This document shows, in pieces, positions 3,514-8,989 of a DNA stretch of 32,432 nucleotides. Positions within the stretch are counted from its first letter, which is position 1. Every line of letters starts with the position of its first letter. Source of the stretch: Escherichia coli. Lineage in GTDB: Bacteria; Pseudomonadota; Gammaproteobacteria; Enterobacterales; Enterobacteriaceae. The DNA lies in NCBI RefSeq assembly GCF_003334255.1, contig NZ_QOWU01000058.1; one strand, given 5' to 3'. The position numbers and the translations under genes were made by a program. A model generated the notes under the pieces. That model was given only the letters and a program-made list of their open reading frames with translations. It made no database searches and was not told the origin of the DNA.

Positions 3514-4431
3514 ATGGTTCAGAAAATTTTGTCGGATAAGGTTATGAATGAAAGAACAAATGCGTATTACTCTTATTATCTTGGAGAGCGTAATATCTCC
3601 GTACTACCCCTTAATGTTTATGATCCCCCGGAACGTTTTATCGCTTACATAAAAAAAAACAGAGAAAATCTGAACATCACACTTTCAGATTTTGAACTTG
3701 AACAAATAATTTCTGGTATGCGTCTGAAGGCCCTGGCCTTCCTGGTCCCCCTGGAAAAAATATCCTGGATCGCGGGCAGTGAACGCGCATGCTTATTTTC
3801 CTGGTATCTGTTGATGCAGTTTATCCAGAATAACAGGGCAAAAATAAGCGCAGACTTGCTTCAAAAGAATAAACTGTATCTTAAAGAAGAGTATCTGGAA
3901 GGGAATGCCTTCCCGTCGGACTCATCGACACAGTTCAGACAAATACTCAGAGTTCTCGATATTCTTTCTGATAAGAATTTGCGGGATGAGTGGATAATCC
4001 AGACCAAAGACAGATGGATGCGGGCATTTAAATCAAAGAGTCCTTTCAGTTACCTCCTCCCGGAGAACGAACATGAATGCATATGGACATGGAATTATTT
4101 GAAGGGAAAAAATATTGCACTGGAAAAACTGGCCAGTTTTCCTGGTTCTGCTGATATTTACCACGCAATTCACCTTTCATTTGACATATGGGTTACCTGT
4201 CCACTCACCTCACCTGACGATATAAAAAATTTCAGAAACAGTTTCAATAAGGCCAAGGCGCAGCGCAAGTACAAAAAAATGCAGGAAGATAAAGTCAATG
4301 TACAGTTTTTTCTTGACGCAGAAACCAGGGCGCAGCTCAAAGAATTATCGAGGGTCAGAAGACTCAGTACCGGCGAAATGCTGCATGACCTGATTGTTGA
4401 AGAGTATAAAAGGTACCGACATTCCAGATAA
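3514..4431 (+). CDS. Orphan hypothetical protein (305 aa) with a C-terminal ribbon-helix-helix-like segment
   Basis: Clean 918-nt ORF in a visibly AT-rich segment, with AGAGG Shine-Dalgarno just upstream of the ATG at 3514. The C-terminus VQFFLDAETRAQLKELSRVRRLSTGEMLHDLIVEEYKRY has the strand/helix/turn/helix pattern of RHH (CopG/Arc-like) DNA-binding domains. The N-terminal ~260 aa are unrecognised and contain no P-loop. Confidence 0.65.
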   Translation: MVQKILSDKVMNERTNAYYSYYLGERNISVLPLNVYDPPERFIAYIKKNRENLNITLSDFELEQIISGMRLKALAFLVPLEKISWIAGSERACLFSWYLLMQFIQNNRAKISADLLQKNKLYLKEEYLEGNAFPSDSSTQFRQILRVLDILSDKNLRDEWIIQTKDRWMRAFKSKSPFSYLLPENEHECIWTWNYLKGKNIALEKLASFPGSADIYHAIHLSFDIWVTCPLTSPDDIKNFRNSFNKAKAQRKYKKMQEDKVNVQFFLDAETRAQLKELSRVRRLSTGEMLHDLIVEEYKRYRHSR

Positions 4432-4457
4432 TTTCAGACATATATTATCTCCGTGAG

Positions 4458-4499
4458 TCCCCCACCACCTTTCCGGTGTGCGGGGGTTTTGTCTTTTTT
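4458..4499 (+). terminator. Candidate rho-independent terminator (GC-rich dyad followed by a T-tract)
   Basis: gtcccccaccacctttccggtgtgcggggg followed by ttttgtctttttt, immediately downstream of the 3514-4431 ORF. The stem is imperfect. Confidence 0.4.
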
Positions 4500-4515
4500 C
4501 ACCGGGAATACATGT

Positions 4516-5388
4516 ATGAATCCGTCTGATGCCATTGAGGCAATTGAAAAACCGCTCTCCTCCCTGCCTTACTCACTTTCCCGTCACATCCTGGAACATC
4601 TGCGCAAACTCACCAGTCACGAACCCGTGATTGGCATTATGGGTAAAAGCGGGGCCGGTAAATCCTCACTCTGTAATGCACTGTTTCAGGGGGAGGTCAC
4701 CCCGGTCAGTGATGTTCACGCCGGCACCCGGGAAGTGCGGCGCTTCCGTCTGAGTGGCCACGGTCACAGCATGATTATCACTGACCTGCCCGGGGTGGGC
4801 GAGAGCCGGGACAGGGATGCAGAGTATGAAGCCCTGTACCGTGACATTCTGCCTGAACTTGACCTGGTACTGTGGCTGATTAAAGCCGATGACCGTGCCC
4901 TGTCTGTGGATGAGTATTTCTGGCGACACATCCTGCACCGGGGACATCAGCAGGTGCTGTTTGTGGTGACGCAGGCCGACAAAACGGAGCCCTGCCATGA
5001 ATGGGATATGGCCGGCATTCAGCCTTCTCCCGCACAGGCACAGAACATTCGTGAGAAAACAGATGCGGTATTCCGGCTGTTCCGGCCCGTACATCCGGTT
5101 GTGGCCGTATCGGCCCGCACCGGCTGGGAACTGGATACGCTGGTCAGTGCGCTCATGACAGCGCTTCCCGACCATGCCGCCAGTCCCCTGATGACCCGCC
5201 TGCAGGACGAGCTGCGCACGGAATCTGTCCGCGCTCAGGCCCGTGAACAGTTTACCGGTGCGGTGGACCGGATATTTGACACGGCGGAGAGCGTCTGTGT
5301 TGCCTCTGTTGCCCGTACGGTTCTGCGTGCCGTCCGTGACACGGTGGTCTCTGTTGCCCGCGCTGTATGGAACTGGATTTTCTTCTGA
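4516..5388 (+). CDS. yeeP: YeeP/YfjP/YkfA-family putative GTP-binding protein (50S ribosome-binding GTPase-like)
   Basis: Walker A GKSGAGKSS, DLPGVG (G3) and TQADK (G4-like) motifs. Sits immediately upstream of the Ag43 gene as in CP4-44. Start chosen at the internal ATG 4516; the GTG at 4453 is an alternative. Symbol is by synteny and family; yfjP and ykfA are paralogs. Confidence 0.8.
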   Translation: MNPSDAIEAIEKPLSSLPYSLSRHILEHLRKLTSHEPVIGIMGKSGAGKSSLCNALFQGEVTPVSDVHAGTREVRRFRLSGHGHSMIITDLPGVGESRDRDAEYEALYRDILPELDLVLWLIKADDRALSVDEYFWRHILHRGHQQVLFVVTQADKTEPCHEWDMAGIQPSPAQAQNIREKTDAVFRLFRPVHPVVAVSARTGWELDTLVSALMTALPDHAASPLMTRLQDELRTESVRAQAREQFTGAVDRIFDTAESVCVASVARTVLRAVRDTVVSVARAVWNWIFF

Positions 5389-5499
5389 ACAGTCTGCCAG
5401 GGAAATGCCTGATAACATTACGTTAATCAACTGAAAACATGACACAAACCCCTCATACTCCTCCTGTTTCTCTTGCGTGACCGCCTTGTCATTAATAGA

Positions 5500-5545
5500 A
5501 TAAAACGATCGATAAAACAGGTATCAATCGTTGCTATCGATCGTT
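5500..5545. promoter_or_regulatory. Ag43 upstream regulatory segment with Dam GATC sites (candidate OxyR/Dam phase-variation switch)
   Basis: GATC at 5507-5510 and 5539-5542 within aacGATCgataaaacaggtatcaatcgttgctatcGATCgtttat, ~220-250 bp upstream of the Ag43 start. The OxyR/Dam switch of agn43 is established knowledge; that this exact segment is the operator is inference. Confidence 0.45.
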
Positions 5546-5759
5546 TATAGTGGTTAATGGTCTGCGAAAAGGCAGCTGAATCTCTTCATCATGCAGAACG
5601 GAATTGCACACAACGGACTGATACTTCTCTGGCGGATGAGAGAGGGGAAGCATTTATGTCCGGGAAAAACCACTTTATCTGACCATGCTGTTTTGTACCT
5701 GCCGGTATCCACTTTTGTGGGTACCGGCTTTTTTATTCACCCTCTGTAAGGAAAAGCTG

Positions 5760-8606
5760 ATGAAACGACATCTGAACACCAGCTACAGGCTGGTATGGAA
5801 TCACATTACGGGCACCCTGGTGGTGGCTTCCGAACTGGCCCGCTCACGGGGAAAACGCGCCGGTGTGGCGGTTGTGCTGTCTCTTGCTGCTGTCACATCA
5901 GTCCCGGCACTGGCTGCTGACACGGTTGTACAGGCGGGAGAAACCGTGAACGGCGGAACACTGACAAATCATGACAACCAGATTGTTCTCGGTACGGCCA
6001 ACGGAATGACCATCAGTAGCGGTCTGGAGTATGGGCCGGATAACGAGGCCAATACCGGCGGGCAATGGATACAAAATGGCGGTATCGCCAACAACACTAC
6101 TGTCACCGGTGGTGGTCTTCAGAGAGTGAATGCCGGAGGAAGCGTTTCAGACACGGTTATCAGTGCCGGAGGCGGACAGAGCCTTCAGGGGCAGGCAGTG
6201 AATACCACTCTGAACGGCGGTGAGCAGTGGGTACATGAAGGCGGGATTGCAACAGGTACCGTCATTAATGAGAAGGGCTGGCAGGCCGTCAAATCCGGCG
6301 CAATGGCAACCGACACGGTTGTGAATACCGGCGCGGAAGGGGGACCGGATGCAGAAAATGGTGATACCGGGCAGTTTGTTCGCGGAAATGCCGTACGTAC
6401 CACCATCAATAAAAATGGTCGTCAGATTGTGGCTGTTGAAGGAACAGCAAATACCACTGTGGTTTATGCCGGCGGCGACCAGACGGTACACGGGCATGCG
6501 CTGGATACCACGTTGAATGGGGGGTACCAGTATGTGCACAACGGAGGCACAGCCTCTGACACGGTTGTAAACAGTGACGGCTGGCAGATTGTCAAGGAAG
6601 GTGGTCTGGCGGATTTCACCACCGTTAACCAGAAAGGCAAACTGCAGGTGAACGCCGGTGGTACAGCCACGAATGTCACCCTGAAGCAGGGCGGCGCACT
6701 GGTCACCAGTACGGCGGCAACCGTCACCGGCAGCAACCGTCTGGGCAATTTCACGGTGGAAAACGGTAATGCTGACGGTGTTGTTCTGGAGTCCGGCGGT
6801 CGCCTGGATGTACTGGAAGGCCATTCAGCGCAGAAAACACGGGTGGATGACGGCGGAACCCTGGCAGTGTCTGCCGGTGGTAAGGCAACAGATGTCACCA
6901 TGACATCCGGTAGTGCCCTGATTGCAGACAGTGGTGCCACTGTTGAGGGGACCAATGCCAGCGGTAAGTTCAGTATTGATGGCATATCCGGTCAGGCCAG
7001 CGGCCTGCTGCTGGAAAATGGCGGCAGCTTTACGGTTAATGCCGGGGGACAGGCCAGCAACACCACTGTCGGACATCGTGGAACACTGATGCTGGCTGCC
7101 GGGGGAAGTCTGAGTGGCAGAACACAGCTCAGTAAAGGCGCCAGCATGGTACTGAATGGTGATGTGGTCAGTACCGGCGATATTGTTAACGCAGGGGAGA
7201 TTTACTTTGACAATCAGACAACACCGGATGCCGTACTGAGCCGTGCTGTTGCAAAAGGCAACGCCCCGGTAACGTTCCATAAACTGACAACCAGTAACCT
7301 CACCGGTCAGGGTGGCACCATCAATATGCGTGTTCGCCTTGATGGCAGCAATGCCTCTGACCAGCTGGTGATTAATGGTGGTCAGGCAACCGGCAAAACC
7401 TGGCTTGCGTTTACAAATGTCGGAAACAGCAACCTCGGGGTGGCAACCACCGGACAGGGTATCCGGGTTGTGGATGCACAGAATGGCGCCACCACAGAAG
7501 AAGGTGCGTTTGCCCTGAGTCGCCCGCTTCAGGCCGGCGCCTTTAACTACACCCTGAACCGTGACAGCGATGAAGACTGGTACCTGCGCAGTGAAAATGC
7601 TTATCGTGCTGAAGTCCCCCTGTATGCCTCCATGCTGACACAGGCAATGGACTATGACCGGATTCTGGCAGGCTCCCGCAGCCATCAGACCGGTGTAAAC
7701 GGTGAAAATAACAGCGTCCGTCTCAGCATTCAGGGCGGTCATCTCGGTCACGATAACAACGGCGGTATTGCCCGTGGAGCCACGCCGGAAAGCAGCGGCA
7801 GCTATGGCTTCGTCCGTCTGGAGGGTGACCTGCTCAGAACAGAGGTTGCCGGTATGTCTGTGACCGCGGGGGTATATGGTGCTGCTGGCCATTCTTCCGT
7901 TGATGTTAAGGATGATGACGGTTCCCGCGCCGGCACGGTCCGGGATGATGCCGGCAGCCTGGGCGGATACCTGAATCTGACACACACGTCCTCCGGCCTG
8001 TGGGCTGACATTGTGGCCCAGGGAACCCGCCACAGCATGAAAGCGTCATCGGACAATAACGACTTCCGCGCCCGGGGCTGGGGCTGGCTGGGCTCACTGG
8101 AAACCGGTCTGCCCTTCAGTATCACTGACAACCTGATGCTGGAGCCACAACTGCAGTATACCTGGCAGGGACTTTCCCTGGATGACGGCCAGGATAACGC
8201 CGGTTATGTGAAGTTCGGGCATGGCAGTGCACAACATGTGCGTGCCGGTTTCCGTCTGGGCAGCCACAACGATATGACCTTTGGCGAAGGCACCTCATCC
8301 CGTGACACTCTGCGCGACAGTACAAAACACCGTGTGAGTGAACTGCCGGTGAACTGGTGGGTACAGCCTTCTGTTATCCGCACTTTCAGCTCCCGGGGTG
8401 ACATGAGCATGGGTACAGCCGCCGCCGGCAGTAACATGACGTTCTCACCGTCCCGGAATGGCACGTCACTGGACCTGCAGGCCGGACTGGAAGCCCGTGT
8501 CCGGGAAAATATCACCCTGGGCGTTCAGGCCGGTTATGCCCACAGCGTCAGCGGCAGCAGCGCTGAAGGTTATAACGGTCAGGCCACGCTGAATGTGACT
8601 TTTTGA
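5760..8606 (+). CDS. flu: Antigen 43 (Ag43) self-associating autotransporter adhesin
   Basis: 948-aa product. Extended signal peptide [52 protein letters not shown], repetitive beta-helical passenger (GG/NGG/TxVxxGG repeats) and a C-terminal beta-barrel ending in TLNVTF. AAGGAAAAG Shine-Dalgarno precedes the ATG at 5760. The antisense ORFs in the track across this gene are artifacts. Confidence 0.9.
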
Positions 8607-8628
8607 TAATCAGGTCACTCTCCTTCAG

Positions 8629-8657
8629 GCCCCGGTCATCATGACCGGGGCTTTTTA
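8629..8657 (+). terminator. Rho-independent terminator downstream of the Ag43 gene
   Basis: Perfect 9-bp dyad ccccggtca / tgaccgggg (8630-8638 and 8642-8650) followed by cttttt. Confidence 0.6.
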
Positions 8658-8676
8658 CTTTCAGGGAGCAACAGAT

Positions 8677-8835
8677 ATGCCGGGTTGTACATCACGTTTA
8701 TTGCCCGAAGGCCCTTTCTCACGCGAACAGGCTGTTGCCGTCAAAACAGCTTACCGCAATGTGTTTACTGAAGATGACCAGGGAACATATTCCCGGCTGG
8801 TTATCCGTAATGCTGAAGGTCAGTTGCGCTGGTGA
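8677..8835 (+). CDS. Small hypothetical protein (52 aa) conserved in CP4-type islands; family uncertain
   Basis: AGGGAG Shine-Dalgarno at 8663-8668 precedes the ATG at 8677. Product [52 protein letters not shown]. The 8641 start in the ORF track overlaps the terminator hairpin. Confidence 0.4.
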
Positions 8836-8989
8836 TGCCGGAACACAGCTTAATACTCAGCTCGCCAGTTAAGGGCTTCTCAGACAATAAACGTCATTCA
8901 TTTCATCTGTCAGGCCGCGTCTTCTCCGGGAGACGTGGCTTTTTCATTTATTACACCAGTAAATCGTAACCACCGATAAGGAGCAAATT

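Follow-up and report, generated by a model that had tools for sequence, protein, structure and literature searches.

A natural agn43 regulatory region of Escherichia coli in which one substitution replaces the middle Dam site of the OxyR operator

The agn43 (flu) gene of Escherichia coli, encoding the Ag43 adhesin, is controlled by the textbook example of a one-operator epigenetic switch. Dam methylation of three GATC sites blocks the binding of OxyR, bound OxyR in turn blocks Dam and represses the gene, and replication reopens the competition between them (PMC4872104; PMC13337833). Both agn43 allele groups normally hold three GATCs with similar spacing (PMC2808357). Models of the bistability of this switch rest on several methylation steps, and natural alleles in which one step is removed, or slowed about 100-fold, are ready tests of such models. 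Here we ask whether such an allele is present in a 32,432-nt stretch of E. coli DNA (contig NZ_QOWU01000058.1, assembly GCF_003334255.1; hereafter the window), in which a preliminary description had reported only two GATC sites upstream of the Ag43 gene, and what the missing site would mean for phase variation.

The DNA segment in question (5389-5759, 371 nt) is intergenic, running from the stop (5388) of a YeeP-like GTPase family gene up to the start codon of Ag43 at 5760. It is, by homology, the agn43 regulatory region, because the downstream CDS is of the auto_Ag43 type, the leader belongs to the IS102/IsrC RNA family, and the operator aligns with those of K-12 and ATCC 11775. The upstream neighbour (4516..5388, + strand) is named as annotated in RefSeq for ATCC 11775, whose locus is nearly identical; the GTPase-family matches of its protein in NCBIfam are weak, all of them below the cut-off. 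The Ag43/Cah autotransporter adhesin gene (5760..8606, + strand) is intact and encodes a protein of 948 aa, as compared with 1,039 aa in K-12. This protein matches the equivalog HMM NF033177 (auto_Ag43) with 1990 bits against a cut-off of 1200, its residues 1-948 covering profile positions 1-948 of 948, which places it in the family. The 371-nt region is present in 4,011 of 5,426 complete E. coli genomes (megablast). Its top match, at 99.7%, is ATCC 11775 / DSM 30083, in which the island likewise lies next to the mtnK-yjhU region, is 99.9% identical over 11.5 kb and carries an annotated Ag43 CDS with 0 differences from that of the window.

Within the 371 nt, GATC occurs at 5507-5510 and 5539-5542 and nowhere else (32 nt from start to start), exactly as the preliminary description had it. 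Between them lies CAATCG (5525-5530), which that description had proposed as a possible decayed third site, and alignment with ATCC 11775 identifies it as the middle one. The two sequences differ over the 371 nt at a single position, A5526 in the window and G in ATCC 11775, and the G creates TCGATCG (TATCGATCGTT), a middle GATC. In an ungapped reading, the sites of K-12, ATCC 11775 and the window are spaced alike, with 19 nt from I to II and 13 nt from II to III. Since these spacings match, 5507 corresponds to GATC-I, 5539 to GATC-III and CAATCG to the former GATC-II. The comparison with K-12 that had been suggested as a check thus gives an operator with the same geometry, holding GATC at the middle position where the window has AATC. 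MAFFT placed gaps in the K-12 operator, and its alignment misleads at this point; the correct register is ungapped, with the spacings in agreement.

GATC-I (5507..5510, + strand), whose G is the presumed transcription start, and GATC-III (5539..5542, + strand) are both intact, while the former GATC-II (5526..5529, + strand) now reads AATC. On this comparison, GATC-II is lost through one derived G-to-A transition, G5526A. The -10 box, the two OxyR half-site matches, GATC-I, GATC-III, the leader, the terminator and the CDS are all unchanged from ATCC 11775. An operator of the agn43 type is characterized by three GATCs, spaced 19 + 13 nt, in the OxyR-protected region; that of the window retains two, with the spacing of the three positions kept. 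Two GATCs in 371 nt are by themselves unremarkable (about 1.4 are expected by chance), and what makes the missing site significant is homology (1,196 copies are canonical and 1 has AATC, see below), not the GATC count. Over the 11.5 kb shared with ATCC 11775 we found 11 substitutions and one indel, none of which, apart from G5526A, touches a GATC. The chance that one of these 12 differences falls on an operator GATC base is about 1%, a value calculated post hoc.

The frequency of such variants was determined in the 5,426 complete E. coli genomes with 32-mers in which the variant base was central, so that the 28-nt word of megablast must include it. The canonical GATC-II context was found at 1,196 places in 1,009 genomes. 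At the same site, AATC was present in 1 genome (NZ_CM136177.1), TATC in 4 and GATT in 2, while CATC was found in none of the 5,426. Site III read GATT in 3 genomes and GATA in 1. Site I read GATT in 17, including uropathogenic (UPEC) 'clone D' and STEC strains, and GATA in none of the 5,426 by the same 32-mer search. These searches covered 8 of the 36 possible single substitutions of the 12 GATC bases. An unbiased scan of metagenome contigs, performed with an operator query carrying NNNN at all three sites, yielded 45 contigs, 43 of them canonical, one with AATC (L040) and one with TATC (L022), both at site II; the same operator had no match in the viral contigs scanned. The canonical form accounts for about 98-99% of the copies of this operator subtype. 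Judged from these counts, the three-GATC form is the wild type and the AATC allele of the window is rare and derived, which contradicts the possibility, left open in the preliminary description, that two GATCs might be the common wild-type arrangement. Nor does a canonical operator lie elsewhere upstream of flu, as that description had also allowed: the only similar cluster (12387-12421) is situated 3.8 kb past the flu stop.

AATC recurs on different allele backgrounds, once in a complete genome unrelated to the window and once in a metagenome contig of short-read style. This recurrence also argues against an error of sequencing or consensus calling at a Dam-methylated motif, in which case the strain would truly carry GATC. 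Long-read assemblies are known to contain systematic base-calling errors at methylated motifs, and the change is indeed a single base at such a motif, in a phase-variable site where methylated and unmethylated molecules would be mixed. However, the other 11 differences from ATCC 11775 spare every GATC, and four independent assemblies agree exactly on the TATC variant. We therefore consider an error of this kind very improbable.

The candidate sigma-70 promoter elements around the operator can be compared with those of K-12. The -10 hexamer TAGAAT (5496..5501, + strand) is identical in the two sequences and sits in both of them 5 nt upstream of the G of GATC-I. A stretch of 16 bases spanning the -10 box and half-site 1 (ATAGAATAAAACGATC) is likewise shared, as are the position of the operator upstream of the Ag43 gene and the 19/13-nt spacing. 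A putative -35 hexamer, TTGCGT (5473..5478, + strand), lies 17 nt before the -10 box and was recognized from its position and from homology; it matches the consensus at 3 of 6 bases, and K-12 has TTGTCC at the same position. With so weak a -35 element, a consensus promoter scan of the region called no promoter.

OxyR half-sites were scored against the dimer consensus ATAGnTnnnAnCTAT, with 10 defined positions per half-site; just seven 15-mers in the whole window reach at least 8/10. Candidate half-site 1, ATAGAATAAAACGAT (5495..5509, + strand), scores 8/10, is identical in the window, ATCC 11775 and K-12, and ends with the first three bases of GATC-I. Candidate half-site 2, ATCGTTGCTATCGAT (5527..5541, + strand), also scores 8/10 and lies 32 nt from the first, flanked by the G of GATC-II at position 0 (the base mutated in the window) and by the C of GATC-III at position 16. 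This pair, at offsets of -12 and +20 from the G of GATC-I, is the best one in the window, ATCC 11775 and K-12 (16/20), and the two positions within half-site 2 at which the operator types differ are both 'n' in the consensus. One base of each GATC falls outside the half-sites, namely the C of site I, the G of site II (G5526) and the C of site III. The predicted half-sites overlap the GATC sites and the promoter, as would be expected for OxyR recognition of an agn43-type operator. The arrangement typical of the gtr and opvAB switches (at least three half-sites, two mutually exclusive OxyR positions, and GATC pairs in the outer half-sites) is not seen here, the window operator having one well-scoring pair and a third candidate (5523-5537) that overlaps half-site 2 and is without a partner.

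The position of the mutated base can be compared with published mutagenesis of related switches. In the gtr switch (phage P22, Salmonella), GATC pairs 13 nt apart sit in one OxyR half-site (Broadbent et al. 2010, PMC2909390), which is the geometry of GATC-II and GATC-III in the window. Mutagenesis of gtr and opvAB changed the outer GATC base, which stopped methylation while sparing OxyR binding or the OxyR consensus (PMC2909390; PMC4856963), and in opvAB single GATC-to-CATC changes shift the sizes of the ON and OFF subpopulations toward the state with OxyR on the unmethylatable site (Cota et al. 2016, PMC4856963). The window resembles these CATC and GATG mutants in that the outer base of a GATC overlapping an OxyR half-site is changed. 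It differs from them in that they are laboratory constructs, usually double, of switches in which OxyR chooses between alternative sites and can activate, whereas G5526A is a natural single change, to A and not to C, in a one-site repressor switch. The identity of the new base is of some consequence. E. coli Dam is least strict at the first base pair of GATC and in vitro acts on AATC about 100-fold and on CATC about 1000-fold more slowly than on GATC (Horton et al. 2015, PMC4417163), which makes the AATC of the window an approximately 10-fold better residual substrate than the CATC of the gtr and opvAB mutants. Because Dam still methylates AATC, albeit about 100-fold more slowly, the altered site may be regarded as leaky.

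These data suggest how the substitution would act. Since G5526 lies directly 5' of predicted half-site 2, outside the 15-bp consensus, OxyR binding would be largely kept, while Dam methylation at site II, now AATC with GATT on the opposite strand, would be lost or drastically slowed. The fully methylated ON operator would carry methyl groups at two sites only, and OxyR would recapture it more readily after replication. The switch would still work, with a bias toward the OxyR-bound OFF state and a less stable ON phase. Methylation also enhances agn43 transcription. The agn43 gene downstream is intact, and the regulatory change has a target to act on. We hold it somewhat probable that the window carries the normal Dam/OxyR operator of an intact agn43 gene with a derived G5526A, forming a two-site switch (or one with a leaky third site) that is biased OFF, a direction that we infer from the above steps. 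The operator would in that case be a natural two-site or leaky-third-site variant of the K-12 agn43 switch, and G5526A probably shifts how often agn43 is switched on. The proposal of the preliminary description that loss of the site could alter switching or OxyR occupancy is thus a reasonable one, consistent with what has been published for related switches. Wallecha et al. are said to have concluded in 2002 that methylation of fewer than three sites may already block OxyR; the effect could then be small.

The favoured reading also has to be weighed against an overlapping register of OxyR recognition (5523-5537, ATCGATCGTTGCTAT), which scores 8/10 in the canonical operator and 7/10 in the window, and in which G5526 is the conserved G of ATAG. 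Were this register used, the substitution could weaken OxyR binding rather than, or beyond, methylation control, leading to ON-biased or locked-ON Ag43 and constitutive aggregation. ATCG at 5523-5526 is shared by the K-12-type operator and the operator type of the window though it lies outside the primary register, and position 5526 falls inside the OxyR footprint, which we take to extend from about -16 to +42. Nevertheless, we judge this outcome improbable: consensus scoring reveals no well-matching partner for the alternative half-site 22 or 32 nt away, the -12/+20 pair scores 16/20 in all operator types, and the mutagenesis of gtr and opvAB picks exactly the outer G, outside the OxyR consensus (PMC2909390; PMC4856963).

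The mutated base also lies within the predicted leader RNA. The agn43 leader RNA (5505..5741, + strand) matches Rfam family RF00124 (IS102/IsrC) with 63.1 bits against a gathering score of 46, over model positions 1-206 of 206, and belongs to this family, as does the K-12 leader. In MG1655, isrC is annotated at the homologous position, beginning at the G of GATC-I and ending at the leader terminator. Most of the leader, and the sequence between the GATC sites, differs from K-12, an allele-group difference that the window shares with ATCC 11775. Three 5' stem pairs of the RF00124 match are flagged as non-canonical, one of them containing the mutated base. The final part of the leader holds an intrinsic-terminator-like hairpin followed by a T-run (5701..5734, + strand; 12 pairs, 8 of them G-C), just upstream of the ribosome-binding site and 25 nt short of the start codon. 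It is conserved in K-12 and corresponds to the 3' stem of the RF00124 model. Synthesis of the full-length agn43 mRNA would therefore need read-through of this hairpin, a known feature of leader control. An effect of G5526A through leader RNA structure is unsupported, the predicted minimum free energy fold of the first 54 nt being the same with A and with G (-11.7 kcal/mol). Only an alternative local hairpin between sites II and III is predicted to be lost (from -7.0 to -1.8 kcal/mol).

Other natural operators of the same subtype have likewise lost one site by one substitution: AATC (L003, L040) or TATC (L022, L049-L052) at site II, GATT at site I (L054-L057), and GATT or GATA at site III (L058-L060). 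They differ from the window in the site or the base, in background (at least 18 differences per 1.4-2.2 kb) and, in several cases, in lying beside a disrupted flu. The first four variants all affected the G of GATC-II; a mutational or selective hotspot unique to this base was rejected when controls revealed losses at sites I and III and GATT at site II. Single-site GATC loss appears, from these sequences, to occur at all three operator sites at low frequency. When allele backgrounds were compared over 1.4-2.2 kb around the operator, the nearest relative of the window proved to be the canonical ATCC 11775, with 2 differences. The two other AATC alleles (L003 and L040) show 26-52 differences from the window and from each other, and the nearest neighbours of each are canonical. 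Four TATC alleles (L022, L050, L051 and L052), from the USA, the UK, Australia and a metagenome, form one clonal group, identical over 2,240 nt and with an intact agn43, while the TATC of PCN061 (L049) has a separate background. The G of GATC-II would accordingly seem to have been lost on at least five allele backgrounds (three times by G-to-A and twice by G-to-T). Alleles with GATT at site I also occur on several local backgrounds. Short gene-conversion tracts between agn43 copies may be a source of shared alleles.

Low-frequency loss at every site and the persistence of a TATC lineage with intact agn43 in the USA, the UK, Australia and a metagenome would fit a near-neutral polymorphism, with two Dam sites being enough for essentially normal phase variation and G5526A a drifting variant, sometimes part of the decay of the locus. 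In 4 of the 15 variant loci examined (L049, L056, L058 and L059), flu is frameshifted, truncated or deleted, while it is intact in the others and in the window. The existence of single-loss alleles at all sites, some of them beside a disrupted flu, also tells against the OFF-biased switch, since it fits weak selection or neutral decay as well. On the other hand, three equally spaced GATCs are kept across divergent allele groups (PMC2808357) and in about 98-99% of the subtype, and this conservation argues for purifying selection on all three sites. Moreover, the CDS of the window is intact and identical to that of ATCC 11775, and single GATC changes clearly matter in related OxyR/Dam switches (PMC2909390; PMC4856963). 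We regard neutrality as unlikely, though with an appreciable chance of being correct. More doubtful still is the idea that loss of operator GATCs is a recurrent, selected retuning or hard-wiring of the agn43 switch, with AATC acting as a leaky, slow third step that changes its kinetics, and with a GATC-free 8.6 kb insulating it from Dam and SeqA at neighbouring sites.

The window allele has an intact adhesin gene as well as a relative that is near-isogenic but retains all three sites (ATCC 11775, with the canonical GATC-II), and it offers a test case for the relation between the number of Dam sites and switching rates. If the proposed bias is true, carriers would differ heritably in aggregation and biofilm behaviour with the protein unchanged, which would matter when Ag43 phenotypes are interpreted across isolates. 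The practical consequence is small, as the difference consists of one SNP in a well-understood system. A full-text search of the literature found no description of natural loss of an agn43 GATC; most subscription-journal papers lay outside its scope, and an earlier description is possible.

The distribution of GATC elsewhere in the window shows two further patterns. Across the 8.6 kb from 3772 to 12386, the 2 operator sites are the only GATCs, where about 29-33 would be expected; other palindromes of 4 nt occur at roughly their expected frequency. This segment spans genes for a hypothetical protein, the YeeP-like protein, Ag43, DUF905 and DUF932 proteins, an antirestriction protein and RadC/YeeS-like, YeeT-like and YeeU/CbtA-like proteins. 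In the K-12 CP4-44 element GATC is likewise scarce in yeeP, in flu (none, with 8.2 expected) and in yeeS-yeeW (none, with 7.7 expected), but yeeR has 12. Several metagenome loci lack GATC over the 4-6.8 kb that follow the operator. A literature search returned no paper on a GATC-free region around agn43. A mobile module that avoids restriction or MutH could explain the pattern, as could an insulating effect on the switch.

The second pattern is a cluster of three GATCs at 12387-12421, spaced 18 + 13 nt, with a truncated cbtA-like gene on one side and mtnK on the other. In sequence the cluster is similar to the operator of K-12 agn43 (ATTGATCGTT...CCGATCGATAAG), and OxyR half-site-like matches (7/10), in a register equal to that of agn43, occur at 12375 and at 12406. 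The spacing alone is non-significant (23 of 100 shuffles), and no promoter-like site was found beside the cluster, which is identical in ATCC 11775. Its location, downstream of the island module instead of upstream of flu, rules it out as the canonical flu operator; it could represent either a relic or another Dam/OxyR operator.

Some differences from ATCC 11775 were also noted elsewhere in the island. A 2.6-kb ISEc12 element (IS21 family), present in ATCC 11775 (11603-13905 of that locus, L061) and many close relatives between a DUF987 gene and a yeeU-like antitoxin gene, is absent from the window at about position 11516. A 1-nt deletion at 10067 lies upstream of the antirestriction gene. Finally, 4 of the 11 substitutions are bunched within 28 nt (10928-10955) inside the RadC/JAB-like gene, a clustering that suggests a short tract of recombination or gene conversion.
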